A program made the position numbers and the translations under genes. Under the pieces are notes generated by a model. That model did no database searches. It saw only the letters and a program-made list of their open reading frames with translations, and was not told the origin of the DNA. From the NCBI GenBank assembly GCA_029881255.1, contig JAOUMY010000004.1, forward strand, positions 53,313 to 85,312: a stretch of DNA of 32,000 bases. Direction: 5' to 3'. Of the stretch, positions 2,711-29,951 are shown in pieces. This DNA is from Gammaproteobacteria bacterium (GTDB taxonomy: Bacteria > Pseudomonadota > Gammaproteobacteria > S012-40). Each line of letters starts with the position of its first letter. The first letter of the stretch is position 1.

Positions 2711-3012
2711 GGCCTTATATTTTTCCCTCGGGTATTGGCGTTATTCTAATGGCTTTCTTGAGGTGATGCATCGCCGTTAACGAACTGGTTATGCTAGTCA
2801 TGGGGGCTGAAGCATGAATTAATTCGCTTGTTTGTATATCTTGTTGTATTTAAAGAGTAAATATGATTGGATTCTTCTGAGTGCCTGGCCAGTGCTTACA
2901 TAAGCTCATCTGGCGCGGGAATTCGATTGACGACTAGTGGTCTTAGACATTCTTAAGGCAAGGTAGTGGTGTAACAAAATCCAGGGTTTGATTTCTAAAG
3001 TAGTGGTGGTAT

Positions 3013-3519
3013 GTGAAGAAAGGATCATCCATGAACAGACAATTGGCGACGGTATTCGTTTTGATGTTTGCCCTATTGCCCGCGACAGGGCAGGCATTTC
3101 AATTTTTGAAAGACTTCCAGGGAAATATCAAAAGCCTGACGGATTATACCGGCAAAGGTAAGTGGACGGTGGTAATGATGTGGGCGCATGACTGTCATGT
3201 GTGCAATCAGGAGGCCCATCAGTATGTGAAATTTCACACGGCGCATAAAGACAGGGACGCAATCGTGCTGGGAATCTCTATGGATGGATTGGAAAAAAAG
3301 AAGGAAGCGGAGAGTTTTGTTCAGCGCCACAAACTGAATTTTGACAATCTCTATGGCGAGCCCGAAGCATTGGCTGAGGCGTTCGAAAACTTGACCGGGG
3401 TTTCCTGGTTTGGTACGCCGACGTTTCTATTCTTTAATCCCAAAGGGGAGATTATGGCGCAACAGGTCGGCGCAGTACCCCCTAAATTGATCGAACAGTT
3501 TATGGTCAATAATCCCTAG
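3013..3519 (+). CDS. Periplasmic TlpA/redoxin-family thiol-disulfide oxidoreductase (thioredoxin fold)
   Basis: N-terminal signal peptide (MNRQLATVFVLMFALLPATGQA/FQ). CxxC active site in thioredoxin-like context (VVMMWAHDCHVCNQE). Downstream GTPTFLFFNPKGE is typical of the cis-Pro loop region. The start may be the internal ATG at 3031. Confidence 0.8.
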   Translation: MKKGSSMNRQLATVFVLMFALLPATGQAFQFLKDFQGNIKSLTDYTGKGKWTVVMMWAHDCHVCNQEAHQYVKFHTAHKDRDAIVLGISMDGLEKKKEAESFVQRHKLNFDNLYGEPEALAEAFENLTGVSWFGTPTFLFFNPKGEIMAQQVGAVPPKLIEQFMVNNP

Positions 3520-9697: not shown

Positions 9698-11245
9698 ATG
9701 TACAGCGGAACCCTCATTCAATTGGTGAGATTGAGTCTGTTATCAGTGTTGATGACAGCGCCTGTATATGCATGGGATAGGTTAGAACAATTACCAATAC
9801 CGTCTGCAAGGGAGTTGCTCGATGATGAGAAACCCCTTTTTAATCAATCGATAAAGCTTATGGTTGAGGGCAAAAACTCCGATGCGATACGTGCACTACA
9901 ACCGATGGCTGAGGGCGGCGTCGTTGATGCCCAGGTCGCCCTTGGAAATATTTTGGCCCATGAGTCAACTCAGCAACAGCAAAAGAGTGGTTATCGTTAT
10001 CTCTACTTCGCAGCCAATAATGGAAATTGGCATGCGCAGCTGGTGGTATCCAATGCTTTTCGTGAAGGAATTTTTACGCCGGTAGACTATGGCAAGGCGC
10101 GTCATTGGCTTAAACGGGCAGCAGTAAACGGCGATGCCGCCATAGTGTCTCAGGAAACTGAGGCCTTGAATCACACCATGATGCTGGAGTCGGTGTCGCA
10201 GCTAGAGCAGGCACAATACGATGAGGCAGAAAAACTCTTACGCGAACTGGCAGAAGAAAACGTCGTCTCCGCACAGGAAAAGTTGGCGGGTATTTATCAG
10301 AACGGCTTTCTGGGCGAGGACAAAAAAGATGTTGCGCAGAATTGGTGGCATAGAGCCGCGCAACTTGGCTCTCAGGAAGCACAATACCAATTGGCCATGT
10401 CGTATTTTTCCAGTCCTGCCATTAGTGACGAACAACGTCAAAACGCTATTCGTATGCTGGAAAAGGCCGCACAACCGGGTAAGGCTGAGGCGCAATATCA
10501 ACTCGGCATTATCTATCTGACCGGTCAAGGTACAGACAAAGATGCGGATAAGGGTATTTTCTATTACCGCATGGCCGCAGAGCAGGGAAATGTGGATGCG
10601 CAGTACTCCCTTGGTGTTCGTTACGTCCTCGGTGAGGGCGTGAGTAAAAATGAATATGAAGCCCATCGTTGGTTTAAGGCCGCCGCTGATCGCGGTATGT
10701 CGAAGGCGATGCACAATCTCGCCTTAACGTATTTATATGGAATGGGCACTGAACCGGATGCCCAGATGGCAGAACGCTGGTTCCGATCCGCGGCAAGAGA
10801 CGGCGTGGAGAAATCGACGGGATTTATTCAACAAGACACTTCAGTCCAACCAACGCTGGTTCGGGTTGCCGATGCAACACCGAGTGCAACAAAACCTAAG
10901 ACCAGCAAAAAAGCGACGGTTACGAATACTCGGAAAGTTGAAACAGTAAACGGCGCAGACTGGTTTCTCAACCTTCCGACCAAAGGATACACTTTGCAGG
11001 TACTGTCTGCCGCGAATCCCCGTAGTGTCGATGCATTTCTTTCAAAGCACAGGTTAAAGCGAAAAAACTATTTGCACTATATCGATCGATCCAATAAACG
11101 ACCTTTGCATGTTGTTCAATACGGCTATTTTGACAGTCGTGAAGAGGCGGAAAAAGCAGCGAAAGATATGTCGAAGACGCGAAAGAATTTTGAGCCATGG
11201 ATACGTGATGTAAAAAGTATCCGTAATAAAATTGTCAATATATGA
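9698..11245 (+). CDS. Periplasmic Sel1-repeat protein with a C-terminal SPOR peptidoglycan-binding domain
   Basis: Signal peptide MYSGTLIQLVRLSLLSVLMTAPVYA/WD. At least 7 Sel1-like repeats, e.g. AQYQLGIIYLTGQGTDKDADKGIFYYRMAAEQGNVDAQYSLGVRYVLGEGVSKNEYEAHRWFKAAADRGMSKAMHNLALTYLYGMG. A Ser/Thr/Lys-rich linker follows. The SPOR-like C-terminus reads GYTLQVLSAANPRSVDAFLSKH...LHVVQYGYFDSREEAEKAAKDM. Its stop overlaps the motA-like ATG (ATGA at 11242). Confidence 0.85.
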   Translation: MYSGTLIQLVRLSLLSVLMTAPVYAWDRLEQLPIPSARELLDDEKPLFNQSIKLMVEGKNSDAIRALQPMAEGGVVDAQVALGNILAHESTQQQQKSGYRYLYFAANNGNWHAQLVVSNAFREGIFTPVDYGKARHWLKRAAVNGDAAIVSQETEALNHTMMLESVSQLEQAQYDEAEKLLRELAEENVVSAQEKLAGIYQNGFLGEDKKDVAQNWWHRAAQLGSQEAQYQLAMSYFSSPAISDEQRQNAIRMLEKAAQPGKAEAQYQLGIIYLTGQGTDKDADKGIFYYRMAAEQGNVDAQYSLGVRYVLGEGVSKNEYEAHRWFKAAADRGMSKAMHNLALTYLYGMGTEPDAQMAERWFRSAARDGVEKSTGFIQQDTSVQPTLVRVADATPSATKPKTSKKATVTNTRKVETVNGADWFLNLPTKGYTLQVLSAANPRSVDAFLSKHRLKRKNYLHYIDRSNKRPLHVVQYGYFDSREEAEKAAKDMSKTRKNFEPWIRDVKSIRNKIVNI

Positions 11246-12081
11246 GAGCACGGCAGGGCGGATTTATTTCATGGGACACCGTATTCGGCATACTTGCCGG
11301 ATTCGGTTTGTTCGTTTTTGCGGTATGGACATCGACAGACAATGCGTTGGTGTTTTGGAGTGTAGCGAGTTTGTCTATGGTTATCGGCGGTACATTTGCA
11401 GCTACGCTGATTTCATATCAATCCGCCTATGTCATGAAGACGATTAAGGCATTGTTTGGCATTCTAATTCCCACGCGTGTTAGTGCTGGATCTTTATTTG
11501 CCGATGTGGGACGGCTGCTTGAATGGAGTCGTGACGTACGGGAAAAAGGTCCGGCAATATTAGACGATCAGTTGGAAAATGCCGCCGCGAATAAGCTGGA
11601 TAAATTTACGGTGCACGGACTCAACATGCTTTCCAGCGGCTATAAGGGCGAGGAACTGCGGGAGTTGTTAATGGAACTGACAGAGACGATGTTTGATCGT
11701 TCTCAAGTGCAGGTGGGTGTTCTGAAAACGATGGCGCAGTTTGCGCCAGCATTCGGCATGATAGGCACCTTGGTCGGTCTGGTCATCATGCTGGATAACT
11801 TGAAGGCAGATGTAAGCCAGTTGGGGCAAGGACTTGCCTTAGCATTGATAACAACACTCTACGGTGTAATTGCCGCGAATCTCGTGTTTAAGCCAGCGGC
11901 ACTGAAAACGGATCAAAAAAACAATGTTATGCGCTTTCGAAACACGTTGTTATCTGAAGGGTTTGTGATGCTGAGTGAAAAAGTGGATCCACTCAAAATG
12001 CAGGACAAGTTGAACAGCTTTCTAGATCCCGCAGTTCACTTTGACTTGCTTGCAACAAACGAAAAGGGCAAGAAAAGGTAA
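11242..12081 (+). CDS. MotA/PomA-family stator ion-channel protein (MotA/TolQ/ExbB superfamily, 4-TM MotA type)
   Basis: 279 aa with two N-terminal TM helices. The long cytoplasmic loop has a MotA-type pattern (REKGPAILDDQLEN...FTVHGLNMLSSGYKGEELRELL). The C-terminal TM3/TM4 carry the two conserved prolines (FAPAFGMIGTLVGLVIML and ALITTLYGVIAANLVFKPAALK). Confidence 0.9.
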   Translation: MRARQGGFISWDTVFGILAGFGLFVFAVWTSTDNALVFWSVASLSMVIGGTFAATLISYQSAYVMKTIKALFGILIPTRVSAGSLFADVGRLLEWSRDVREKGPAILDDQLENAAANKLDKFTVHGLNMLSSGYKGEELRELLMELTETMFDRSQVQVGVLKTMAQFAPAFGMIGTLVGLVIMLDNLKADVSQLGQGLALALITTLYGVIAANLVFKPAALKTDQKNNVMRFRNTLLSEGFVMLSEKVDPLKMQDKLNSFLDPAVHFDLLATNEKGKKR

Positions 12082-12087
12082 AACGCC

Positions 12088-12768
12088 ATGGCTACCAGAT
12101 ACCGAAAACGGTCTGCGGTGTCGGACGAAGATAGCGAAGACTGGTTGCTGACATACTCGGATGCGGTGACATTGTTGATGACGTTTTTAGTTTTGATGTT
12201 GTCCGTATCGACTATCGATCAGGCGAAATATGAGCAGGTTGTAGAGTCGATTAAAGAGAAAGGCCTGGATCAGGACAAGCAGTATGTATCGCCGTTCGAG
12301 ACGCTACAGGAAAAATTGAATGATGTTGCCAAAGAACATGATATGGAAAAAAACATGACCGTGACGCGCCAACCAAAAGGGCTGACGATAGAGTTGGCAT
12401 CGTCCAGTTTGTATACCGTGGGTTCTGCAGACATACAGGATGCGGCACTGGCGGCCTTGAGTGATGTGGCGTCGTCGATAAAAGGTTTTGACTATGACAA
12501 TTACCAGGTGGAGATTGAGGGGCATACGGACAATGTGGCAATCAATACCGAGCGCTATCCCTCGAATTGGGAGTTGTCTGTGCACCGGGCAACGAACGTC
12601 GTGCGCCATTTTCTGCAGAGTGGCATCGATAACGATCGTATCAAGGTCGCAGGTTATGCCGATACGCGTCCAAAAGTACCGAACCAGGACGTAGCTGGAA
12701 ATGCAATCCCTGGTAATCAGGCTATCAACCGACGCGTGGTGATTCACGTGGTGAGAAAAGAGGATTAG
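12088..12768 (+). CDS. MotB/PomB-family stator protein with an OmpA-like peptidoglycan-binding domain
   Basis: 226 aa. The N-terminal TM has the conserved channel Asp (DWLLTYSDAVTLLMTFLVLML). The C-terminal OmpA-like motif is IEGHTDNVAINTERYPSNWELSVHRATNVVRHFLQSGIDNDRIKVAGYADTRP...NRRVVIHV. It starts 6 nt after the motA-like stop. Confidence 0.9.
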   Translation: MATRYRKRSAVSDEDSEDWLLTYSDAVTLLMTFLVLMLSVSTIDQAKYEQVVESIKEKGLDQDKQYVSPFETLQEKLNDVAKEHDMEKNMTVTRQPKGLTIELASSSLYTVGSADIQDAALAALSDVASSIKGFDYDNYQVEIEGHTDNVAINTERYPSNWELSVHRATNVVRHFLQSGIDNDRIKVAGYADTRPKVPNQDVAGNAIPGNQAINRRVVIHVVRKED

Positions 12769-12777
12769 GGGCAGGTA

Positions 12778-13902
12778 ATGGAAATGACTTCACTTGTCAG
12801 AAATGGTAGCAAACGGAAGGCGCTGTTCTTGCTCATGTCTTTTTTCGTGATTTCACCAGACGCAGTGATGGCTGCTGATCCGTCAGCTACACCACAAGTC
12901 GAACGCTTCAAGTTGAGTTATCGCGATGCAGAGATGATTCAGTATATAGATGCTCAGGAAAAATTCGTTAAGTTGCTTGATTCGCCGGGTGTGTTAACAG
13001 AGGAAGTATTAAAGGATATAGATTTTGAAGTAAGAAATATTGCCTTTTATCGCTTCAACGACAGACAGTACAAAAAGTTTCCACGCATATTCTACGACTC
13101 GATTGAACAAAGACTAATGGACCGTTTTATTCGGGCCAAACGTTTCGCAGTACATGAATGTTTTGAATGTAAAACGACACGCGTACTGTTAAAGGAAAAG
13201 CAGTTTTCCGTTTTGCGCCAACTTGATTCGAACGAGGCACTCAACGAAGTGGGGAAGAAAATTGGCGTCGACAGCTTTGTTTTGTGGGAAGCCTATATGT
13301 ATAAGGGTGACCCTATGCTTAATATACGCGTCGTCTCGGCAGCAGATGGTCAGGTCCGATGGTCGAAACAATACCTGAGTGAACCTGCCTATGAATTTGA
13401 GTGGGAGATGTATAGCTCACTGTGGGGAATAAAGGCGATAAGGGCAAGAACTTCGGGTAGTGGTTCGGATATCAGCGTATCGCCCATTCTCGACATAGGT
13501 CTCAGAACCCTGTCGCGCTCAACTATTTCGGACAAAATTTATTATGGCTACGGCGTCGAAGCCTTCTTCAATACGATGTATCGCACCCAGGTGGATCTTT
13601 ACGGCTTGAGTCTGAATGCCCGTGTGGGCGTCGAAATGGATAGTATGCTTGGGCTGGAAATGAAGAACTATGGCAATTGGCTGATGTATCTTTCCGTTGG
13701 TCAGGCGTTCTTGAAAAACAATCCTGTGTTATTGATTCGGGGTGGTCTGGAGATACGTATAAACAGGCGTAATTTTATTGAGATTGGTGGCGTGTTCATT
13801 CCTACGACGACATTTAGCAACGGATCAGCTTTGGCAAATTACAGTGATGTGTCTTCGCTTAGTAACCTTGGTTACGACGTCACTATCGGTTTTCGTTTTT
13901 AG
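12778..13902 (+). CDS. Predicted outer-membrane protein: periplasmic alpha/beta domain (CsgG/LpoB/FlgO-like pattern) plus a C-terminal beta-barrel
   Basis: Sec signal peptide (KRKALFLLMSFFVISPDAVMA/AD). The N-terminal half has the pattern seen in CsgG/LpoB/FlgO-type domains (IAFYRF...IEQRLMDRFIRAKRFAVHE...LNEVGKKIGVDSFVLWEAYMYKGDPMLNIRVVSAADGQVRWS). The C-terminal half has alternating amphipathic strands and ends in a textbook OMP beta-signal (YDVTIGFRF, terminal Phe). I recognised no characterised family. Confidence 0.5.
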   Translation: MEMTSLVRNGSKRKALFLLMSFFVISPDAVMAADPSATPQVERFKLSYRDAEMIQYIDAQEKFVKLLDSPGVLTEEVLKDIDFEVRNIAFYRFNDRQYKKFPRIFYDSIEQRLMDRFIRAKRFAVHECFECKTTRVLLKEKQFSVLRQLDSNEALNEVGKKIGVDSFVLWEAYMYKGDPMLNIRVVSAADGQVRWSKQYLSEPAYEFEWEMYSSLWGIKAIRARTSGSGSDISVSPILDIGLRTLSRSTISDKIYYGYGVEAFFNTMYRTQVDLYGLSLNARVGVEMDSMLGLEMKNYGNWLMYLSVGQAFLKNNPVLLIRGGLEIRINRRNFIEIGGVFIPTTTFSNGSALANYSDVSSLSNLGYDVTIGFRF

Positions 13903-13912
13903 GTGAATTGAC

Positions 13913-14602
13913 ATGGGTAAATATTCTGGTCGATTGAAATTAGTTTACATCTCACTGGTGGTAGTGGCGATCTCCGCTTGTATGCCGCGTATTCCTACCA
14001 ATCAGACTCAGACTCGCGACGTAGCTCTGGAAGACGTGCAGAACGAAATGCAGCAAAAAGGGCAACGAGTCAAGATGATTAATGAGCCCGGGATGATTCA
14101 TATTCAACGCCAGACAGAAGAGTATTCGATCAGCATGGTCCTCGATGCCAGTGACGAAAATATCTATTTCGTGATGGATTTGCCGCAGGAAGAGGAAAAG
14201 ATTCAGGAACCCGTACCGGTTGAAGAGCCACCGCTTCCAGAACCGGAGCAAGTTATCCCTGAGCCACCGCCAGAGGAAGAGAACGCAGTCGAAGAAGAAA
14301 AGCCTGCGCCGGTAGAAGAGGCTGCAACCGTAGAGCCGGAAGTCGACGATACTCGCGCGAGCAAATACATTTTGTATGCGCAAACCTATTTTCTGGAAAA
14401 GAAATATGCACGCGCATTAGAAGAGGTTAACCGTGCCGTAGGCTACTCGCCAGGATCTGCGGTAGCGCATTCATTGCGCGGTTCTATATTTTACAAGCTG
14501 GGCGAAAAAGAACAGGCTCGCAACGCTTGGACACGGGCATTGGAACTCGATGAAAGTCTCGACAATGTTAAGAAAATGTTAGGTCAGTTGGATCAAAAAT
14601 AG
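13913..14602 (+). CDS. Lipoprotein with a Pro/Glu-rich extended linker and C-terminal TPR repeats
   Basis: Lipobox VVVAISAC. The acidic proline-rich tract is QEPVPVEEPPLPEPEQVIPEPPPEEENAVEEEKPAPVEEAATVEPEV. The C-terminal TPR-like helices are YILYAQTYFLEKKYARALEEVNRAVGYSPGSAVAHSLRGSIFYKLGEKEQARNAWTRALELD. An AGGTGA Shine-Dalgarno lies 6 nt upstream of the ATG. Confidence 0.7.
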   Translation: MGKYSGRLKLVYISLVVVAISACMPRIPTNQTQTRDVALEDVQNEMQQKGQRVKMINEPGMIHIQRQTEEYSISMVLDASDENIYFVMDLPQEEEKIQEPVPVEEPPLPEPEQVIPEPPPEEENAVEEEKPAPVEEAATVEPEVDDTRASKYILYAQTYFLEKKYARALEEVNRAVGYSPGSAVAHSLRGSIFYKLGEKEQARNAWTRALELDESLDNVKKMLGQLDQK

Positions 14603-14626
14603 TTGCTTGTACCGGGAATCTGCATA

Positions 14627-16735
14627 ATGTTTGAATCGGGTCATAAACGCAAATTGATAATCAGAGCACTAGCGCTGGTGTTGTGCTATCTCATTGCGTT
14701 CCCGGTCGGCCTTGCAGAGGAGATCGAGCGACGTAGTAAGGTCAGTGATCTGGCACGCAGTACATTCGAGAAGGATCTGGAGCAGCGACTTTCCCGCGAT
14801 ATCAAAGCCTATCTCAATCACGAATTCTTTATCGTACAAATAAATGCGCAACTGGAAAATATCGAGAAGTGGGATATCAGCGAAGTTGTGGTGCCGGTTG
14901 AGCCGCCTCCTCAAGCTCCACCACAGGCTGCACCTCAAGCTCCACCACCGGTACCCGCGATAGATGAAAAGAAGAAAACGATATTATCGCAGATGGAGCT
15001 CGATACCAAAGACGGAATCAATAGTAGTATTCTGGAAAAAAGTATCGGTGTTGATACGGCTTTGCCCGGTGTACCTTTGTCCGATGAATTTATCGAGGAA
15101 GAACGAAAACGTTTGGTTGAGTTGGAGCAACTCAAACAGGAACTGAAGCAAAAACTGGAAGAGCCGCCGAAAGCGGAACCACCAGCGCCACCTCCACCAG
15201 TGCCTCAGGTGCAAACAAAAAAGGAAAAGGTAGAAAAACTACTCAGTAAACAGGAAGCGATCCGTAAACTGAATGCAAAGGTGATGCTGGATGAACACGT
15301 CTCTCCGGAGCAGGAAGTGTTTATTCGCAATCTGGTGATAGAGAAGGCCGATCTCTCTTTTTTGCGTGGAGACGAACTACGTATTTTGCGTTCCAAGTTT
15401 CCTGCGGCATCAGTACTGGATGAGCCAGTAGAAGAAGAGCCCAAGCCAGAAGAAGTACCGGAGGAGGCGGCTGAAACTCCGGCGGAAGAACCTCCCACAT
15501 GGTGGGAGGAAAATTGGCAATACGTGCTCGCGGCCGGTGCCATTCTAGCGCTGCTATTGCTGTGGCTTTTTGTCAGACGTAGAGAAAAGGCGCCTGTGAA
15601 TACCGAACCCATGGTGGTGGAGTCTGAGGCCTCGCGCAAGCTTGAAGAATTAATCCGAAAAATGCACGAGAAAGTCGATACGGTAAACGAAAACCGTCTT
15701 GGGGCGATTAAGGAAGAAATTGTTAGTCTCGCCGTAACAGATCAGGAAATGGTCAGCGAGCAAATCAAGGAATGGCTTGGTAGTGCCTCTGAGGATGACA
15801 AAAACAAGTCTGGCTTACTTTATCAAATGTTGGGTGAAGGCTTATATCGCGGCTTGGCGCATCCCGTGTTGACACCGGAAAAGCAAATTGCCGTCGTCGG
15901 TAAGATACTCGAAATCGAAGAGATGATGTCTCCCGATGAGAAACTGGCACTGGCGGAAAATGTGTTTCAGGCCATGATGCAACGCCGCTATCAGCAACAA
16001 CACGATTTGCGCGACGAGAATAAACCGTTCGCCTTTCTTGAAAAACTCAATGACGATCAGATTCTATATCTGTTGAAAGAAGAGCCGCTCAAAGTCAAGG
16101 CTTTGGTAATGTCGCAGTTGTCCTCTAATCGAGGTGCGTCCTTACTGAAACGTTTCAACATTGCCAGTCGTAGTAAGATCGCGATGGAGATCAGCCAGTT
16201 CGCCAAGCTACCGGTATCCGCGTTTCGGGATATCGCTAACAGGCTCGCAAAAAAGGCGGTTCACGTTCCGAGTTACGAAAATCTGGAAGTCGAGGGCATC
16301 GATTTGCTGACAGATATGTTGGACCATATGAATTCTGCGGAAGAAACGGCCCTGCTCAAATCCCTGCAGCGAGAAAATCCAGATCTCTACTATGCAATAC
16401 GCCAGGTATATGTCAGCTTCGACGATATCGTACAGATACCTACGCTTGGACTTAAAAATGTTATTCGCGAACTTGATCGTGAAGTGCTTGCCTTGGCCTT
16501 GTATGACGCAGACGAAAGCTACCGTGGCGTAATCTTCGGCACTATGCTGGAAAGGCCTCGGGCAATGCTGCAGTCGTCAATTAAGGCTTTGGGCGTACCG
16601 GAGCCAGATGCGGTGAACGATGCGAAACGCAAAGTGTCACGACAGGCTCGGGCGATGTTAAAGGCGGGTGTATTTGAGATGCCGAGTGGAAAGCCCAATA
16701 AAAAGACGACGCCAAACGAGAAGAAAAGCGCCTAA
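14627..16735 (+). CDS. Bitopic/two-TM membrane protein with FliF-like topology and a cytoplasmic FliG-like (middle + C-terminal) domain
   Basis: The ORF track starts at TTG 14603. The ATG at 14627 ([30 protein letters not shown]) is more plausible.
- Layout: N-terminal hydrophobic anchor or signal, then ~270 aa periplasmic with [17 protein letters not shown] and [15 protein letters not shown] tracts and a coiled coil.
- Second TM: [20 protein letters not shown] followed by RRREK (nt 15515-15574).
- The cytoplasmic ~385 aa are colinear by eye with E. coli FliG: [31 protein letters not shown] vs [38 protein letters not shown] vs [46 protein letters not shown] vs LQEVDSESLLIALKGAEQPLREKFLRNMSQRAADIL. 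Confidence 0.75.
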   Translation: [702 protein letters not shown]

Positions 16736-16790: not shown

Positions 16791-17357
16791 TCAGGCAATA
16801 TATCGCCGCGACACTTCAGGCCAGTCATATTCGCGTAACTCTTTTTCCAAAGCCTGCGCCTGGTGGCGTTCGCGCAAACTACGCATTAAACAGGTGCGTG
16901 ATTGAAACATCATCATGGCTTCCAGCGGATTAAATTTCATTCCCTCTATAAATAGCAACATGATAGCATCGTGTATGCCAGGAAATTGTTCGAATCGTTT
17001 CAAGGTCTCTTCATGGACTTCATCCCACTCCTCATTTGAGTCGTGACACCAACCGAGTGTATGAAAGATCGGTGGAAGTAGCAGCAGTAGGTTCGGGAAT
17101 CGAATTTCCGCAGGCATAAAAACCACACGACGGATAGAGAAGGAAATGGCATAACTCAGTGGGAGATACAATTGAGCATTGTCTTCTAACAGAGTAAGAG
17201 TGTTCGCCTGCAACAGGTCTTCAACCAGGTCAGCCAGATCTTCCGCACTTTGGGCATGTGAAAGCGCTACGAAGGTTTGATTGACAAAGGCGAGGGGGTT
17301 TTGTGTGTATTCGTATCGTGGCTTTGTATCAAGAGTGTTTTCATCAACGGTAATCAT
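16791..17357 (-). CDS. Hypothetical protein (no recognisable domain)
   Basis: 188-aa ORF with an ATG start, convergent with the FliG-like gene. Mostly helical-looking acidic protein. I recognised no family. Confidence 0.5.
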   Translation of the reverse strand: MITVDENTLDTKPRYEYTQNPLAFVNQTFVALSHAQSAEDLADLVEDLLQANTLTLLEDNAQLYLPLSYAISFSIRRVVFMPAEIRFPNLLLLLPPIFHTLGWCHDSNEEWDEVHEETLKRFEQFPGIHDAIMLLFIEGMKFNPLEAMMMFQSRTCLMRSLRERHQAQALEKELREYDWPEVSRRYIA

Positions 17358-17464
17358 GACATCCTCGCAAAGTTTGCAGCTACGTTAGTAGTGTAATAGC
17401 AGCACTTATGCCATTTCTGAGGATGGTGATATGTCTAGTGATTACAATGGGATAAAGAATGTAA

Positions 17465-17512
17465 GCAGCACCTCGCCAGCGAGAGAGGAGGAGGGAGAAG
17501 GCAAGGTGCTGC
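17465..17512 (-). terminator. Long imperfect hairpin downstream of the HEAT-repeat gene (possible terminator or RNA element)
   Basis: GCAGCACCTCGCC (17465-17477) pairs with GGCAAGGTGCTGC (17500-17512): 12 of 13 bp with one C/A mismatch. The stem encloses a 22-nt purine-rich loop (AGCGAGAGAGGAGGAGGGAGAA on the plus strand). On the minus strand it lies 17 nt after the stop at 17529 and is followed by TTACATTCTTTAT, which is only moderately T-rich. The loop is large for a canonical intrinsic terminator. Confidence 0.3.
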
Positions 17513-17528
17513 CGCTTGCTAGGTGAAA

Positions 17529-17939
17529 CTAACCCATCTGAGGTGACAGCCTTTCCAAGGCCTCAGAGGCGTAGATACGTACTTTCTGACTCGTGTCACT
17601 CAATGCCTGGATCAAGGCCGGTCGGCAAAGCTGGGCAATAGGTGCGATATTACGCAGCGCGCGCGCGGCGGCGATACGTAACGCAGTTTCACCGTCTCTA
17701 AGGGTATGCACCAAGGCCGGTAGGGCTGGCGATGCCTGTTCACCTAACATACCAATAATGTCAAAGCATATGCTTCGCATGAGCGGATCGTTGTCGTTTA
17801 AGGCTTTGTCGGCTAGTTCGCAAACACTATTGTTATCCAACGGGCTGATCTGAGCCAGATATCTTGCAGTTTCCTGCTCTCGTTGCCTGAAATCGGTGTC
17901 TTCCATTGTTGTCATTTCATGTACCTCGTTTGTGCACAT
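17529..17939 (-). CDS. HEAT-repeat protein
   Basis: 136 aa. Tandem HEAT/PBS-lyase-like repeats: DPLMRSICFDIIGMLGEQASPALPALVHTLRDGETALRIAAARALRNIAPIAQLCRPALIQALSDTSQKVRIYASEALERL. Several candidate Met starts. Confidence 0.7.
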   Translation of the reverse strand: MCTNEVHEMTTMEDTDFRQREQETARYLAQISPLDNNSVCELADKALNDNDPLMRSICFDIIGMLGEQASPALPALVHTLRDGETALRIAAARALRNIAPIAQLCRPALIQALSDTSQKVRIYASEALERLSPQMG

Positions 17940-18087
17940 ATCCCGATAGAGCTCATCTATAGTTCAAGCATAGAGCCAGGTTTGTTGGAAAGCTGTGAGT
18001 TTCTTCACAAGGAACACGAATTTTTTTGCAATAAGTTCCCAAAAGACTCAGTACTGCCTCAGACTCTAGTTTGGGTTGGGTGTCGCA

Positions 18088-18870
18088 ATGTGGTTTAATG
18101 TTGTCACAACAAACGACTGGGAATTACGGATGGCAGGCGGGCGCAGGAAATTTGCTCTATTATTTGCCTTGTTTGGCAGCTTTCGTGATCTCGCCCCCAT
18201 CATTTTAGTTGTCGCCTTTTTTCAGTTGCTGGTGTTGCAGCAACCCATTCCTAATATGACCGATATCATCATCGGCGCGTTACTCGTGGCAGTTGGTCTC
18301 ACGCTATTTATTCAGGGCCTTGAGCAGGGTTTGTTTCCCATCGGAGAAAGTATGGCCTACGCCTTTGCGCGTAAGGGCAGTCTCTTTTGGTTACTGGCAT
18401 TCGCTTTCGCTCTGGGATTTGGCACTACCGTAGCGGAACCTGCGTTAATCGCCGTGGCTAAAGAAGCTGCTGCAGTCGCAGCCGGCGGCGGTGTCATTGA
18501 AAATACAGACGAGGCGAAGAGTGATTATGCCTATGGACTTCGGCTTACAGTGGCCTTGTCAGTCGGCGTGGCGATTGTGCTCGGGGTGTGGCGCATACTT
18601 AAGGGCTGGCCTATCCACTACATGATAGTCGTCGGATACATAGGTGTCGTCATCATGACAGCATTTGCGCCTAAAGAGATCATTGGTATTGCTTATGATT
18701 CTGGCGGTGTTACCACTTCGACTATTACCGTACCTTTAGTGACAGCACTCGGTGTTGGCCTGGCCTCCAGCATTAAGGGGCGTAATCCCATGATCGATGG
18801 ATTTGGGCTTATCGCCTTTGCTTCCTTATTACCCATGATATTTGTCATGGGGTACGGGATGTTGTTCTGA
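18088..18870 (+). CDS. DUF1538-family integral membrane protein (paralog 1)
   Basis: Polytopic membrane protein sharing blocks with the next gene ([68 protein letters not shown]). I recall these blocks as DUF1538. The ORF track starts at TTG 18076. ATG 18088 and ATG 18130 (MAGGRRKF, which aligns best with the paralog N-terminus) are alternatives. Confidence 0.8.
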
Positions 18871-19664
18871 TGGAACTGATATTACAAATACTATCGACTT
18901 TACTCGCCACTATCGGTGATGTGTTACCGATCGCAGCCATCATCTTTGGCTTTCAATTTCTGGTTATACGCAAACCCGTTCCTCAACTAAAACGCGTCCT
19001 GGTGGGATTTGTCTATGTCCTGCTTGGCTTAGCGCTTTTCCTTGTTGGATTGGAAAAGGCCTTGTTCCCACTCGGCAAGTTAATGGCGCAACAATTGACA
19101 GATCCTGAATTTATTTCAAGAGGAATGGACGTAGTTACAACAGCGTTGTCCTGGCAGGACTACAAATGGGTATACATTTTTGCCTTTGCCATCGGATTTT
19201 CCACCACGATTGCCGAGCCATCTTTGATTGCGGTAGCCATTAAGGCACAGGAAGTGTCCGGTGGAACCATAAGTGTGTGGGGTTTGCGCATAGCCGTAGG
19301 TCTGGGAGTGGCCATAGGGATTGCCCTGGGTACCTTCCGTATCGTAACGGGTACACCTTTGCACTTTTATATTATTTCCGGCTATATCGTGGTCGTCATC
19401 CAGACCTTTTACGCACCGCGCATGATAATCGCCTTGGCATACGACTCTGGCGGGGTTACAACGTCGACTGTGACGGTACCATTAGTAGCTGCGCTGGGAT
19501 TGGGTTTGGCCAATACCGTGCCGGGGCGCAGCCCGCTGCTGGACGGATTTGGTCTAATTGCCTTTGCCAGTTTATTCCCCATGATGACAGTCATGGGCTA
19601 CGCGCAGTTTTCAGACTGGCGTTCCAAACAAAACAGGAAACGATATACGGAAGGAGGGAAGTAA
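18870..19664 (+). CDS. DUF1538-family integral membrane protein (paralog 2)
   Basis: 264 aa. It has the same conserved blocks as paralog 1 ([68 protein letters not shown]). Its start overlaps the upstream stop (TGATG). Confidence 0.8.
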   Translation: MELILQILSTLLATIGDVLPIAAIIFGFQFLVIRKPVPQLKRVLVGFVYVLLGLALFLVGLEKALFPLGKLMAQQLTDPEFISRGMDVVTTALSWQDYKWVYIFAFAIGFSTTIAEPSLIAVAIKAQEVSGGTISVWGLRIAVGLGVAIGIALGTFRIVTGTPLHFYIISGYIVVVIQTFYAPRMIIALAYDSGGVTTSTVTVPLVAALGLGLANTVPGRSPLLDGFGLIAFASLFPMMTVMGYAQFSDWRSKQNRKRYTEGGK

Positions 19665-20014
19665 TGCATTTTAAATTAATTATTGCACTGATCGAGGACG
19701 ACAAAACTGAGGCCGTGCTCGAAGCTGCCCGCAAGCAGGGCGCGACTGGGGCCACGATTATCAATCACACGCGTGGCGAGGGCTTGGTTCCAACCAAGAC
19801 ATTCCTGGGCTTGTCATTGGAAACTCAGCGGGACATGTTGATGTTTCTGGTCGAGGAACATTTGTGCCGAAAAATTCTTGAGACGATTGCGGAAGTCGCA
19901 AGATTCGATGTGGATTCGGGGGCGGGAATCGCCTTTCAGATAAATGTTGAAGATGCAGTGGGGGTGTCTCATCAGGTCAGTCAATTGTCAAAATTGGTGG
20001 AGGATAATCTATGA
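19664..20014 (+). CDS. PII-like (GlnB-fold) signal-transduction protein
   Basis: This 116-aa reading frame is the 3' part of track ORF 19277..20014. The true start is the ATG at 19664, preceded by AAGGAGGG and overlapping the upstream stop (TAATG). The sequence MHFKLIIALIEDDKTEAVLEAARKQGATGATIINHTRGEG...MLMFLVEEHLCRKILETI has the beta-alpha-beta PII layout, with a loop at the T-loop position. Confidence 0.65.
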   Translation: MHFKLIIALIEDDKTEAVLEAARKQGATGATIINHTRGEGLVPTKTFLGLSLETQRDMLMFLVEEHLCRKILETIAEVARFDVDSGAGIAFQINVEDAVGVSHQVSQLSKLVEDNL

Positions 20015-20412
20015 GTGAGAAAGCGCCGATCAAAGTCAGAGATGTGATGAAGGCAGAGTTCGATGTAGTCGATGGTATGGCGACGATTGATCAGGCAGTG
20101 GAACGTATGCAGCATGTCGATACTAAATGTTTAATTGTCGACAAACGACACGAAAACGACGAGTACGGCATTCTTCTGTTGTCAGATATTGCGCGTAAGG
20201 TATTGGCCAGAGATCTTGCTATGGATCGAGTCAATGTCTACGAAATCATGGCCAAGCCAGTCTTACATGTGGACCCGGAAATGGATATACGTTACTGCGC
20301 GCGTTTTCTCGATCGCTTTGATTTGTCGCGTGCGCCAGTTGTGGAAAACCGCAAAGTCATTGGCATCGTAAGTTATACCGATTTGGTATTGAAAGGATTG
20401 TGTCGGAAATAG
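20011..20412 (+). CDS. CBS-domain pair protein
   Basis: 133 aa. Two CBS-like modules: VRDVMKAEFDVVDGMATIDQAVERMQHVDTKCLIVDK and VYEIMAKPVLHVDPEMDIRYCARFLDRFDLSRAPVVENRKVIGIVSYTDLV. Its start overlaps the PII-like stop (ATGA). Confidence 0.85.
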   Translation: MSEKAPIKVRDVMKAEFDVVDGMATIDQAVERMQHVDTKCLIVDKRHENDEYGILLLSDIARKVLARDLAMDRVNVYEIMAKPVLHVDPEMDIRYCARFLDRFDLSRAPVVENRKVIGIVSYTDLVLKGLCRK

Positions 20413-21960: not shown

Positions 21961-24396
21961 ATGCCACAGGCTTCCGATGGTGCGATTACGCATTTACTGG
22001 AGCGCTTACGTAAACAGTCCGCAAATTGTATTACTGCTGAATTAATACAACCCGCCAATCGTGGCGAATATGCGGACTTTCCAGAGTACCTCGATCCGAG
22101 TCTTGTACGGGCGCTAGAGTCGCGTGGTCTTACGCGCCTGTACAGTCATCAACGCCAGGCACTGGAATATATAAACCAGGGTCTACACACCGTGCTCGTA
22201 ACGCCAACGGCCTCTGGTAAGACGCTTTGTTATAATCTGCCCGTACTCAATAGTGTATTGCGTGATCGCGCGAGGGCACTCTATCTTTTTCCCACCAAGG
22301 CATTGTCTCAGGATCAGGTAGCCGAAATTCTGGAGTTGAACGATTCCGGCGGCTTAGGCGTGCGCGCCTATACTTTCGATGGAGACACGCCAGGGGATGC
22401 GCGCAAGGCGGTACGCGTGCATGGCGACATCGTTGTTTCCAATCCCGATATGTTGCACCAGGGCATATTGCCGCATCACACCAAATGGGCGCAGTTTTTC
22501 GAAACACTGCGTTATATCGTTATCGACGAAATGCATATTTATCGCGGCGTTTTCGGCTCGCATATGGCCAATGTATTGCGCCGTCTGCAACGCATCTGTC
22601 GTTTTTATGGAAGCTCTCCACAATTCATTTTATGTTCCGCCACTATCGCCAATCCTGAGGAATTGGCCACGCGCTTGATTGGACACGAAGTAGTGACAAT
22701 TACCAGGAGTGGGGCGCCACGAGGGGAACGCCGGGTATTGTTGTGGAATCCGCCGGTAATCAATCCCGATCTTGGGATTCGCGCTTCGGCACGATCGCAG
22801 TCTACCCGAATAGCCAAAGAGGCTACGGGGATGGGTTTGAAGAATATTATCTTTGCCCAATCCAGACTAATGGTTGAGGTACTCACCAAATATTTAAAAG
22901 ACAAATTCGACAAAGATCCTCGTCATCGTGCGCGCGTACATGCCTATCGCGGTGGTTATTTGCCTAGCGAACGCAGGGATGCAGAGCAACGCATGCGACG
23001 TGGCGAAGTGGACTGTGTTGTGGCGACCTCGGCGCTGGAACTGGGTGTGGATATCGGTGCTCTGGATGTCTGTATTTTGAACGGATACCCCGGCACTATC
23101 GCAGCGACCTGGCAGCGTATCGGCCGGGCAGGTAGACGCAATCGTCCTTCGTTGGGGGTTCTGGTGGCCAGTAGTCAGGCACTGGATCAATATATTGTTC
23201 GCAATCCGGAGTTTTTTCTCGATGCCTCACCGGAGCATGCGCAGATCGATCCCGATCAGTTGCTGATTTTACTCGATCATGTCCGTTGCGCCGCGTTCGA
23301 ATTGCCATTTCGTGAAGGTGAGCGCTTTTGTGATCGAGGGGTGGAGGATTTTCTGGACTATCTGGAGGACGAGGGGATTTTGCATCACGAGGGTGATCAA
23401 TGGCACTGGATGACCGATGCCTACCCTGCCAATAGTGTAAGTTTGCGTTCCGTGGCGGAAGGCAACTTCGTCGTCATAGACACCACTGGAGGCAAGCAGG
23501 AGATCATCGCCGAAGTGGATTATTCCGCTGCACCACTGACGCTGTATGAAGGTGCAATCTATATGATACAAGCACGCCCGTGGCAGGTTGAACATCTGGA
23601 CTGGGAAGGACGCAAAGCCTTCGTAACGCAAACCCGCGCCGACTACTATACCGATGCCATCGACTACACCAAACTCAAGACGCTGGATCAGTTTGAGTCT
23701 GCATCACTGGGTGAATGTAAAGTCGCGATGGGAGAGGTTCATCTGGTGAGGCGTGTCGCGGGATATAAGAAGATACGCTATTACACTCACGATAATATTG
23801 GATTCGGCAAGGTCAATCTTCCCGATCAGGAAATGCATACCACCGCGGTTTGGTGGCAGGCAAAGCCTGAGAGTCTCGACAATGCCTTCCAAAACCGTTG
23901 GCAGGCCCTGGATGGTTTTCTTGGCGCTGCCTATGCCATGCATCACATTGCCAGTCTGTTGTTGATGTCGCAGCCTCAGGATCTGGGGCGCGCAGTGGGT
24001 AATAGCGATGCTGAGTGGTTGGCAACTGTTGGCGCAAACGGGCGTGGACAAATGAAATCCTTTGCTGGAACCGAAATCAGCGACTCATCGAACGTCGCGG
24101 AGTTTACGCCAACGCTGTTTCTCTACGACAACTTTCCCGGTGGTATAGGTCTGAGCGCGCCGTTGTTTGATAAACGTGAGTTGATTCTGCAGCGTGCGTC
24201 TTCGCTGATCGAAGATTGCGATTGTACTTCTGGATGCCCGGCCTGTATCGGTCCTATCCTCGCCAGTGAAGAGGCGCGAGGCTATTCTCCAAAGACATCT
24301 GCGCGCATGGTGTTGGCGCTGTTTCTTGGACAAGCGCAGGAAGGTTTGTCGATGATGGAAGAAAAGCGCAGAGAAAGGTATGCGCTCAATGGCTAA
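21961..24396 (+). CDS. DEAD/DExH-box helicase with a C-terminal DUF1998-type Cys4 domain (YprA/MrfA-like)
   Basis: 811 aa. SF2 motifs: I VLVTPTASGKTLCY, II IVIDEMHIYRG (DExH), III LCSATIANP, V VATSALELGVDIG, VI WQRIGRAGRR. The C-terminal Cys cluster is CDCTSGCPACIGP, as in MrfA-type helicases. Confidence 0.9.
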   Translation: MPQASDGAITHLLERLRKQSANCITAELIQPANRGEYADFPEYLDPSLVRALESRGLTRLYSHQRQALEYINQGLHTVLVTPTASGKTLCYNLPVLNSVLRDRARALYLFPTKALSQDQVAEILELNDSGGLGVRAYTFDGDTPGDARKAVRVHGDIVVSNPDMLHQGILPHHTKWAQFFETLRYIVIDEMHIYRGVFGSHMANVLRRLQRICRFYGSSPQFILCSATIANPEELATRLIGHEVVTITRSGAPRGERRVLLWNPPVINPDLGIRASARSQSTRIAKEATGMGLKNIIFAQSRLMVEVLTKYLKDKFDKDPRHRARVHAYRGGYLPSERRDAEQRMRRGEVDCVVATSALELGVDIGALDVCILNGYPGTIAATWQRIGRAGRRNRPSLGVLVASSQALDQYIVRNPEFFLDASPEHAQIDPDQLLILLDHVRCAAFELPFREGERFCDRGVEDFLDYLEDEGILHHEGDQWHWMTDAYPANSVSLRSVAEGNFVVIDTTGGKQEIIAEVDYSAAPLTLYEGAIYMIQARPWQVEHLDWEGRKAFVTQTRADYYTDAIDYTKLKTLDQFESASLGECKVAMGEVHLVRRVAGYKKIRYYTHDNIGFGKVNLPDQEMHTTAVWWQAKPESLDNAFQNRWQALDGFLGAAYAMHHIASLLLMSQPQDLGRAVGNSDAEWLATVGANGRGQMKSFAGTEISDSSNVAEFTPTLFLYDNFPGGIGLSAPLFDKRELILQRASSLIEDCDCTSGCPACIGPILASEEARGYSPKTSARMVLALFLGQAQEGLSMMEEKRRERYALNG

Positions 24397-25633
24397 TCTT
24401 CCGTCGGTCCAAAGCGGGCTTAAAGATAAGCTGGCGGTTTTGAAAGGTCGAAGTTCGCAGAATACTACTTCGACGGAGACGATCGCAGATGACTTGCGAC
24501 GACGTTTACAGGCTTCTTCGCGCAAGGCAGCTATCAATCAGAATAAACCAGACGACGAGCAACTTGCGGGAATATTGGGCGCAGAGGTGCTTGGCCGAGG
24601 CGTTATATTGCGTCGTACAGTTGTGCCATTGGGTCGTCAACATGGAATGTTTCGTATAGAGCCAGTGAGTCAAAGAGCATTGGGTTTGCCCGAGCTTGAT
24701 GGTTTGAGTATGCAGCGCCTTCTTTTTTTTGATACCGAAACCAGCGGGCTTTCAGGGGGTACCGGGACACAAGCCTTTATCATTGGGTTGGCGTCACTCG
24801 ATCAACAAGCCGGACATGTTGACGTATCGCAGTTTTTGTTGACAGCGTTTTGTGGTGAACAACTCATGTTGCGTTTCGTCGCCGAGATCGTAAATCAGCA
24901 TGACGTGTTGGTCAGTTATAACGGCAAATCGTTTGATTCTCCCTTATTGGCAACACGGTATCGAATGCAGGGTGAAAAAGACCCGTTTTCTCATTTGCAA
25001 CATCTGGATTTATTGCACCCTGTTCGTCGTTTATTCAGACAGCTTTGGAAAGATTGTCGCCTGGCGCGCGTGGAAAGCGAATTATTAGGATTCCAGCGAA
25101 CAGACGACTTACCCGGTTCACAAGCGCCAGAGGTGTGGTTTGAGTGGATGCGATTCGGCAGGTATCAGCGACTGGACGCTGTATTACGACACAATTACTG
25201 GGATTTACTAAGTTTACTCGTAGCACTCAATCGCTTGTCCACACTGATAGCGGCGCCATCGGCTTCGCAGATATCGTTGTCGGCGTTGGCCAAGTGGTAC
25301 AGAGATACCGGTTTGTTTGACGTATCCCACGCGGTATTGGAGAAAAACCGAACTATACTTGATCATGAAGGTTTGCTGGCGTTAGCCGCTTCCTACCGAC
25401 GACAGCGACAGTGGGAACAGGCGGCCGAGATCTGGAAAGTGCTTGCCACGGACGGGTGTCTTACATCTGAAGAACAATTGGCCAAATATTACGAACATCG
25501 GCTGCGTGACTTTGAGTCCGCCCTGAGTAGTACTAAACGTCTTATGTGTAGTGATCGGCATAACAGTGCCTACCAACATCGTTTTATTAGATTGCAGCAG
25601 AAGCTTCACCTAAGACATTTGCAACTCGTCTAA
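24380..25633 (+). CDS. DnaQ/RNase H-fold 3'-5' exonuclease with a C-terminal TPR-like region (YprB/MrfB-like)
   Basis: 417 aa, overlapping the helicase 3' end by 17 nt. DEDDh-type motifs: Exo I LLFFDTETSGL, Exo II LVSYNGKSFDSPLL, Exo III LRHNYWDLLSL. The C-terminus is helical-repeat-like (LALAASYRRQRQWEQAAEIWKVLA...LAKYYEHRLRDFESAL). An alternative start is the ATG at 24389. Confidence 0.75.
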   Translation: MRSMANLPSVQSGLKDKLAVLKGRSSQNTTSTETIADDLRRRLQASSRKAAINQNKPDDEQLAGILGAEVLGRGVILRRTVVPLGRQHGMFRIEPVSQRALGLPELDGLSMQRLLFFDTETSGLSGGTGTQAFIIGLASLDQQAGHVDVSQFLLTAFCGEQLMLRFVAEIVNQHDVLVSYNGKSFDSPLLATRYRMQGEKDPFSHLQHLDLLHPVRRLFRQLWKDCRLARVESELLGFQRTDDLPGSQAPEVWFEWMRFGRYQRLDAVLRHNYWDLLSLLVALNRLSTLIAAPSASQISLSALAKWYRDTGLFDVSHAVLEKNRTILDHEGLLALAASYRRQRQWEQAAEIWKVLATDGCLTSEEQLAKYYEHRLRDFESALSSTKRLMCSDRHNSAYQHRFIRLQQKLHLRHLQLV

Positions 25634-29770: not shown

Positions 29771-29951
29771 GTCATCTACGATAAACTGGACTTGTCCTTT
29801 CTGATAATCATTATTTCATCTAGGTCATCTAAGTTTCCGTCTGAAAAATAAGGTAGAAAATCGGCCTTTATAAGGCATTACTGATACGTTTTCCGATATT
29901 TATCGGTTAGAATCCCTTTCTAGCGTATAAGTATTTTAATGTGGCAAAGAC

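Follow-up and report, generated by a model that had tools for sequence, protein, structure and literature searches.

To our knowledge, FliG rotors driven by MotAB stators are known only from flagella, and we know of no example, in the debates on the origin of the flagellar motor, of its torque core apart from the type III export apparatus. Here we analyse a gene that joins parts of the flagellar proteins FliF and FliG, and the operon to which it belongs, in a stretch of 32,000 nucleotides from a Gammaproteobacteria bacterium (GenBank assembly GCA_029881255.1, contig JAOUMY010000004.1, positions 53,313 to 85,312 of the forward strand; hereafter the window, whose numbering is used for all coordinates given without a locus name). 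The fusion gene lies at 14627-16735 on the + strand, as do all parts of it and of its operon described below. Together with genes for its own MotA and MotB, a predicted beta-barrel protein and a lipoprotein with TPR repeats, it forms a self-contained five-gene module with the fusion as rotor, which in the window's clade is a six-gene operon. We are highly confident of the identity of the fusion and of the non-flagellar character of the module.

Several described systems come close to this arrangement. In Salmonella, a fragment of FliF with only its third ring-building motif (RBM3) forms the S-ring and beta-collar, and the pore in which the export gate sits is made by RBM2 of FliF (PMC11739650). 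Rings are also formed by engineered FliF-FliG fusions (PMC11481574), and those made in Salmonella still permit assembly and rotation of the flagellum (reviewed in PMC4768692). The flagellar proteins and the engineered Salmonella and Vibrio fusions have, like the window protein, RBM3, the second transmembrane helix (TM2), the FliG-binding tail and the N, M and C domains of FliG in the same order. The window fusion is natural rather than engineered. It differs further in lacking RBM1 and RBM2 and probably also TM1, in carrying proline-rich arms and an LPGxP motif in place of the collar loop, in having lost EHPQR and, in the window's clade, all torque-helix charges but one of five, and in lying in a cluster without other flagellar genes. 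In the literature that we searched, the only natural FliF-FliG fusion reported is a different protein, that of the Chlamydiaceae, which has ~330 residues with an RBM2-like and a second RBM-like region and a homologue of the FliG middle domain only, and which is discussed in an injectisome context (Bergeron 2016, PMC4768692). It resembles the window protein in being natural, in joining a shortened FliF to FliG sequence and in occurring without a complete flagellum; going by its published description, it is set apart by the RBM3, the full FliG and the dedicated MotAB that the window protein keeps. The same literature, which does not cover all journals, holds no description of a FliF(RBM3)-FliG protein with dedicated MotAB and outer-membrane partners, and recent papers on MotAB phylogeny do not mention the module. 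Its parts are known, but their arrangement and context have not been described before in the works searched.

The reading frame of the fusion (14603/14627-16735) is intact and encodes 702 residues counted from the ATG at 14627, which is also the start in the public annotation of an identical protein (P0001), labelled "hypothetical protein" and coming from a gammaproteobacterial metagenome-assembled genome (MAG). The product is a type I membrane protein in which the C-terminal half of FliF is joined end to end with a complete FliG, since FliF homology stops at residue 387 and FliG homology starts at residue 390. The junction falls where the neighbouring fliF and fliG genes meet in E. coli. An initial annotation, made from the nucleotides and their translations only, had proposed a rotor that fuses the MS-ring to FliG, is laid out like FliF and has its RBM split in two. 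Pfam, PDB sequence matches, profile-profile alignment with hhalign and structural searches with Foldseek bear this out and sharpen it, to FliF from RBM3 to the tail, followed by FliG 5-324, with a MotAB of its own. The strings quoted in that annotation are all in the frame (both proline-rich tracts, the second hydrophobic segment with RRREK, EEPL and YVSFDDI).

In the FliG part, Pfam FliG_C (PF01706) matches residues 579-684 at 1.3e-20 (74.1 bits, gathering cut-off 23.3) and FliG_M (PF14841) matches residues 477-549 at 4.4e-10 (40.1 bits, gathering cut-off 25); the match to FliG_N is weak and below threshold. The best PDB sequence matches are FliG structures, with 1lkv first (2.2e-17). The N domain is present too, since a broad family profile built from 102 members aligns from residue 5 of E. 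coli FliG onwards (FliG 5-324 against fusion residues 390-686; hhalign, 99.1 %, E 6.7e-19). An AlphaFold2 model of the fusion protein (mean predicted local distance difference test score, pLDDT, of 73) gave FliG as the top Foldseek match, with full-length FliG (3hjl) at 6e-11 over 336 aligned columns, which agrees with the N/M/C fold expected of the cytoplasmic part. From these data we place the equivalent of the N domain at residues 390-460 (15794-16006), the middle domain at residues 466-549 (16022-16273) and the C-terminal domain with its torque helix at residues 557-686 (16295-16684).

The functional motifs of FliG are much reduced. Mapping by hhalign and family frequencies shows the EHPQR motif, which binds FliM, to be degenerate: only E125 is kept (as E486), H126, P127 and Q128 have become P, L and K, and R160 has become E521, and the picture is the same throughout the 102 members. 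Among the charges of the torque helix, R281 is kept as R643, K264 is replaced by Y626, D288/D289 by S650/S651 and R297 by E659, so that hhalign reproduces exactly the by-eye alignment of the initial annotation, with one of five charges kept. Across the family, 95 of the 102 members have R or K at position 281; position 288 is most commonly Ser (54 of 102) and Asp or Glu in 19 of 102, position 289 is Glu in 32 of 102, and the Saccharospirillaceae members keep an acidic pair ("ED") at 288/289. The FliG equivalog model TIGR00207 gives 81.4 bits for a cut-off of 226.7. Judged by its sequence, the FliG part is not an orthologous FliG, because it scores below that cut-off, retains only the Glu of EHPQR and has R281 as its sole surviving torque charge.

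The homology to FliF is clear only from profile-profile comparison and from a large profile search, single-sequence evidence being weak. On the fusion protein, Pfam YscJ_FliF_C (PF08345) reaches a sub-threshold 14.9 bits; sub-threshold matches occur in nine of 13 members, and the model passes its threshold in the unfused relatives P0101 and P0102. When the N-terminal part was searched as a profile against PDB sequences, FliF was not found and only noise such as EMC10 came up. Aligned by hhalign with an alignment of 13 genuine FliFs, the 102-member profile matches residues 42-266 to E. coli FliF 233-437 (98.8 %, E 1e-16), a match that spans both halves of RBM3 and puts an insertion at the position of the beta-collar. 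Aligned with E. coli FliF, the same profile matches FliF 372-550 to residues 210-387 (96.3 %, E 2e-9), a stretch that takes in RBM3b, TM2 and the entire cytoplasmic tail as far as the FliG-binding helix (residue 550 of 552), and a close-family profile of the N-terminal part matches FliF 370-471 (86 %, E 5.5e-6). A search with the N-terminal profile among 1.84 billion representative proteins gave 181 matches at E <= 0.001, including FliFs recognised by Pfam (PF01514 and PF08345) and aligned in the RBM3b-TM2 region. In Foldseek, FliG is followed by matches to the FliF RBM3/collar ring as solved by cryo-EM (E 2e-5 to 4e-4, target TM-score ~0.46), in line with the RBM fold anticipated for the periplasmic part. 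Below them comes a weak match (0.58) to SpoIIIAG, which has, as the window protein does, a split RBM with an insertion.

The secondary structure of the AlphaFold2 model is that of a split RBM, with a helix at 41-63, a beta hairpin at 68-90, the insertion, a second hairpin at 197-222, a helix at 227-240 and a strand at 250-256. RBM3a (alpha1-beta1-beta2) takes residues 42-90 (14750-14896; FliF 233-278 by hhalign, modelled helix 41-63 and strands 68-90 at pLDDT 87-93). RBM3b (beta-beta-alpha2-beta3) takes residues 197-258 (15215-15400; FliF 360-430 by hhalign, sub-threshold PF08345) and carries an RGD...F motif whose R247, G248, D249 and F258 are nearly invariant in the family. It is followed by the equivalent of TM2, a hydrophobic peak aligned to the FliF helix at residues 293-316 and ending in RRREK (15503-15574), and by the cytoplasmic tail, residues 317-387 (15575-15787), which corresponds to the FliF C-terminus including the FliG-binding helix (...ALVIRQWINN in E. 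coli). RBM1 and RBM2 are missing: YscJ_FliF (PF01514) has no match at E up to 10 in any of the 13 members, and the mature protein begins directly at RBM3a. The two segments that had been likened to an RBM are thus the two halves of FliF RBM3. The comparison then made with PrgK/SctJ is not the right one: with no PF01514 match, this relationship gives way to FliF RBM3 (PF08345), and no Cys is conserved at the predicted cleavage site across the family that could be the lipobox of SctJ/PrgK.

Between the two halves of RBM3, in place of the beta-collar loop of FliF, residues 91-196 (14897-15214) form an insertion with 20 % proline, low pLDDT and two proline-rich tracts around a conserved segment with LPGxP and a coiled-coil-like helix. 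The initial annotation had been reminded of the insertion that splits RBM3 in FliF, and the hhalign position of the insertion vindicates this likeness. The motif, LPG(L/I/V)P at residues 146-150 (15062-15076), is among the near-invariant motifs of the family, along with RGD and FxFL; its L, P and G are each found in 98-100 of the 102 members. It is also present in the unfused P0101 and P0102, and E. coli FliF carries YPGGVPGALSNQP in the equivalent loop.

By Kyte-Doolittle hydropathy the protein has two hydrophobic segments and no more, at residues ~8-33 and 296-319, for a predicted layout of ~265 periplasmic residues between them and ~385 cytoplasmic residues after the second, starting at RRREK. 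This had been read as the two-transmembrane plan of FliF. The two segments stand, but the reading of the first as a retained TM1 is probably wrong, given the features of a cleavable signal peptide seen across the family, whose N-termini show a short basic n-region, 10-14 hydrophobic residues and AxA followed by Q or E, as is typical of Sec signal peptides. In the window protein the probable signal peptide covers residues 1-30 (14627-14716, hydrophobic peak 8-33, ...PVGLA and then EE). The N-terminal hydrophobic segment is most likely cleaved in this way, and the mature protein is probably bitopic because of this resemblance. A signal peptide, a periplasmic RBM and a C-terminal transmembrane helix make a plan closer to that of SctJ than to that of FliF, but the window protein differs from SctJ/PrgK in having neither a PF01514 match nor a lipobox.

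The fusion is the last of six co-oriented genes at 9698-16735, which overlap or lie 0-24 nucleotides apart and are flanked in the window by unrelated metabolic genes. Its accessory proteins all have a signal peptide or a lipobox, as read from their sequences. The first gene (9698-11245) encodes a secreted Sel1-repeat protein (Pfam Sel1 1.2e-38), MotX-like by an NCBIfam match of 2e-14 that is below the cut-off, with a C-terminal peptidoglycan-binding SPOR domain (2.9e-11). Its stop codon overlaps the start of motA, and it occurs only in the window's clade (L004-L006) and not in the Oceanospirillales clusters. Domains of the SPOR type are known to bind septal peptidoglycan, and one could speculate that this one hints at septal or polar peptidoglycan. 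MotA follows at 11242-12081 (Pfam MotA_ExbB 1.7e-22; best PDB match C. sporogenes MotA, 2e-35; NCBIfam MotP/PomA/MotA 1e-37 to 1e-30, below the equivalog cut-offs), and then, at 12088-12768, MotB with its plug (MotB_plug 2.4e-16), the channel Asp in the transmembrane motif LLTYSDAVTLL and an OmpA-like peptidoglycan anchor (2.5e-16). The next gene (12778-13902) encodes a secreted protein of 374 residues that has no Pfam family, relaxed thresholds giving nothing meaningful. Its AlphaFold2 model (pLDDT 77) suggests an N-terminal alpha/beta domain resembling the LpoB C-domain and TolB N-domain (Foldseek 4e-4) and a small C-terminal outer-membrane beta-barrel (OmpA/NspA/OmpW barrels, 2e-5 to 6e-4) that ends in ...GFRF, with Phe as the final residue. 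The fifth gene (13913-14602) encodes a lipoprotein with the lipobox ISAC, a Pro/Glu-rich linker and C-terminal TPR repeats (TPR_2 1.5e-9).

The stator next to the fusion reads as a flagellar-type MotA/MotB and, because its scores are below the NCBIfam equivalog cut-offs (126.8 for a cut-off of 394), as a divergent paralogue. The initial annotation had suggested that this MotA may have diverged together with the rotor and had called for a search for compensatory changes. A MAFFT alignment of the 16 cluster MotAs and E. coli MotA does not support this: R90 and E98 correspond to R100 and D108, 15 of the 16 have R and D/E there (the exception, L002, has Gln at the R position), and in the window's clade it is only the FliG side that has lost K264, D288/D289 and R297. 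A Glu that a phmmer alignment had set opposite PomA R88 proved to be a register slip of one residue, the MAFFT alignment placing R90 and E98 on the conserved R and D/E. The pair of the MotA E98-FliG R281 type is retained on both sides, since MotA D108 and FliG R643 are kept. As for FliG D288/D289, the partner of MotA R90, it is Ser/Ser in the window's clade, acidic in Saccharospirillaceae and acidic in a minority of the family as a whole.

The association of these genes is conserved. We scanned one genome per GTDB species with a narrow close-family profile, which reached close relatives only, and found the locus in 13 species-representative genomes, with the five genes linked in two orders. 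Ectothiorhodospiraceae-like MAGs have the order of the window (MotA, MotB, 374-residue protein, TPR lipoprotein, fusion), and Oleispira, Thalassolituus, Bacterioplanoides and Saccharospirillaceae have the 374-residue protein, the TPR lipoprotein and the fusion before MotA and MotB; the Thalassolituus loci include that of the cultured T. pacificus 59MF3M-4. Fusion, MotA, MotB, barrel protein and TPR lipoprotein stand together in every gammaproteobacterial locus examined. The 374-residue protein is present in every compared cluster except L002, where only a hidden Markov model (HMM) detects a homologue, and homologues of the TPR lipoprotein occur in all clusters searched and also in remote ones. 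Remote members, at ~20 % identity and on metagenome contigs, have the fusion, one or two small genes and then MotA and MotB. In three of the four remote clusters (L002, L018 and L023) the small genes are homologues of the 374-residue protein (HMM E 1e-5 to 2e-9) and of the TPR lipoprotein; the fourth, L019, has one short unmatched gene between fusion and MotA, and its link to the lipoprotein runs only through the C-terminus of an upstream protein of 995 residues. In the same cluster, P0077 (6666-8891, 741 residues) has an N-terminal LysM peptidoglycan-binding domain before its RBM3-like part. The five-gene linkage holds from 65 % to ~20 % identity: the tie of the family to MotAB has survived both rearrangement and deep divergence. 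In the loci whose neighbours we viewed (the window, L001, L002 and L018-L023), none of the neighbouring genes is flagellar; they are metabolic, housekeeping or uncharacterised.

The rotor also exists in unfused form. In L021 (8001-9496) and L022 (8001-9331), a FliF' of 390 residues, with only PF08345 above threshold, a transmembrane helix and a FliF-like tail, is followed by a FliG-like gene that starts at the FliF' stop codon and reads like a FliG N-terminus and then ...NPFAFLNDLVDEQVLLLLKEE. This pair comes directly after MotA, MotB and three TPR/YfiO-like genes. The family is sizeable, as both halves are carried by 115 of the 169 proteins retrieved, 107 of them with at least 540 residues; clustering at 50 % leaves more than 100 fused proteins. 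Public labels of the relatives are "hypothetical" or, in IMG, "flagellar motor switch protein FliG". Another non-canonical FliG architecture turned up in P0018, P0019 and P0020 (~600 residues), which combine TPR repeats with FliG_N/M/C and MgtE_N and whose N-terminal part is unrelated.

The module shares features with several ion-driven machines. With the flagellar MotAB/PomAB stators and the MotX/MotY T-ring it has in common the equivalents of MotA R90 and E98, the plug, channel Asp and OmpA-like domain of MotB, and a MotX-like Sel1 protein; unlike theirs, its stator is encoded with the fusion and not with flagellar or chemotaxis genes, and its Sel1 protein carries SPOR. With the 5:2 motors Tol-Pal, TonB-ExbBD and GldLM it shares a logic, in which a MotA/MotB-family ion motor is combined with an inner-membrane protein that has proline-rich spacers in the periplasm and with outer-membrane and TPR partners, including a TolB-N/LpoB-like domain. 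For the driven parts this is analogy and not homology (the TolQ score is 0.006): the module has a flagellar-type stator, and what it would drive is a FliF/FliG ring instead of a TolA, TonB or GldM stalk. The anti-phage system Zorya (ZorAB) was considered and set aside: PADLOC gave a marginal ZorA match (0.002) and generic MotB-type ZorB matches, and the other four proteins had no Zorya match. The Sel1 repeats drew a short PADLOC match to PtuA.

Taken together, these observations suggest a mechanism for the module. RBM3 would build a ring in the inner membrane from a few tens of subunits, with the FliG torque helices forming a ring beneath it. For comparison, the rings of FliF have roughly 33-35 subunits. 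Peptidoglycan-anchored MotAB would turn this ring by ion flow, through contacts between MotA R100/D108 and FliG R643. The proline-rich arms may act as spacers that bring the LPGxP segment nearer to the peptidoglycan and outer membrane, and its contacts there would be with the barrel protein and the TPR lipoprotein. Ion-motive force would in this way be turned into mechanical work on the envelope, in analogy to Tol-Pal, TonB and GldLM. The machine would neither secrete nor switch, because it has no RBM1/2, export gate, rod or FliM-binding motif: an export gate or rod would find no seat in the absence of RBM1/2, and the loss of EHPQR leaves no FliM/FliN switch. We find this mechanism as a whole, a stand-alone MotAB-driven ring acting on the cell envelope, somewhat probable. 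To the proposition that the fusion serves as the rotor in an autonomous FliG/MotAB rotary machine that is not flagellar, with its own stators and with arms acting on the barrel protein and the lipoprotein, we would give an even chance.

Several points weigh against the fusion being such a rotor. Ring formation, rotation and every contact with a partner are inferred. Since four of the five classical torque-helix charges are gone in the window's clade, the generation of torque might be weak or work differently. The insertion is modelled by AlphaFold2 at low confidence, and it is from the linkage of the genes that we propose its putative contact with the barrel protein and the lipoprotein. One member, P0046 (L020 10001-13709, 771 residues, on a contig of 2.1 Mb), stands near no MotAB; the gene after it encodes a KAP-family NTPase. 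Finally, that the hosts also have normal flagella is expected from what is generally known of Oleispira and Thalassolituus.

The loss of most torque-helix charges in the window's clade would also suit a static platform, a membrane scaffold on which MotAB docks, perhaps for gating the flow of ions, sensing the load on the envelope or sequestering stators, with the FliG domain serving as a stator-binding adaptor only. The partners that are bound to peptidoglycan or the outer membrane (the OmpA-like MotB, the SPOR protein and the barrel protein) could hold such a ring still. Yet the residues that matter most for the coupling of stator and rotor are kept on both sides (R100 and D108 in MotA, R643 in FliG), the plug and channel Asp of MotB are features of a working ion-driven stator, and the known 5:2 motors do mechanical work, all of which makes a static platform rather unlikely.

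Still less probable, in our view, is that the fusion serves as an alternative rotor subunit in a genuine flagellum encoded elsewhere, be it a second flagellar system or a specialised variant of the MS/C-ring. Every recognisable domain is flagellar, the IMG labels name FliG and the Sel1 protein resembles MotX, as such a subunit would lead one to expect. The protein, however, lacks the RBM1 and RBM2 that in FliF house the export gate (PMC11739650), it has lost the FliM-binding EHPQR and had its beta-collar loop replaced, and its score on the FliG equivalog model is 81 bits, against the 227 required. The module moreover keeps its own non-flagellar partners and is never found beside flagellar genes in the loci with neighbours viewed. 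That it is a decaying and functionless remnant of a lost flagellar system, as the truncated FliF part and the several degenerate FliG motifs might suggest, is hardly credible given intact reading frames, a linkage kept over such divergence and across two gene orders, near-invariant LPG, RGD and FxFL motifs and more than 100 clusters at 50 % identity.

If the fusion is indeed the rotor of an autonomous machine, the torque unit made of FliF/FliG and MotAB does not need type III secretion either to exist or to be favoured by selection. In that case the module either arose from the flagellar motor by exaptation or is a relative, still extant, of the secretion-free precursor of that motor. The family, with its fused and unfused members, is widespread among uncultured bacteria. 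The module consists only of an S-ring domain, FliG, a stator and new envelope partners. Since it is present in at least one cultured marine bacterium, Thalassolituus pacificus, three questions become testable: whether a minimal FliF/FliG ring rotates, what use rotation has without a filament and which contacts torque requires. The last of these is sharpened by the finding that only the R281-E98-type pair is strictly kept. The current labels of the relatives, whether "hypothetical" or "flagellar motor switch protein FliG", could distort the inference of flagellar motility from genomes.

The remainder of the window holds several other genes of some interest; Rfam has no match anywhere in it. Convergent with the end of the operon, on the - strand at 16791-17939, are genes for a protein of 188 residues without significant family and for a HEAT-repeat protein of 136 residues (HEAT 2.3e-13). 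They are followed at 18076-20412 by two tandem DUF1538 membrane proteins (Pfam 3e-70 and 5e-67) and then by two small open reading frames, by eye a P-II-like protein and a CBS-pair protein, which may form a transporter cassette together with the DUF1538 proteins. At 21961-25633, a helicase of 811 residues with DEAD, Helicase_C and MrfA-Zn-binding domains overlaps at its end with a protein of the RNase_H_2 superfamily (417 residues), the two resembling a MrfA/MrfB-like repair pair. Two long frames run off the window, one of 913 codons on the - strand at its left end (1-3100), with a lipoprotein-like N-terminus, and one of 687 codons on the + strand at its right end (29900-32000).

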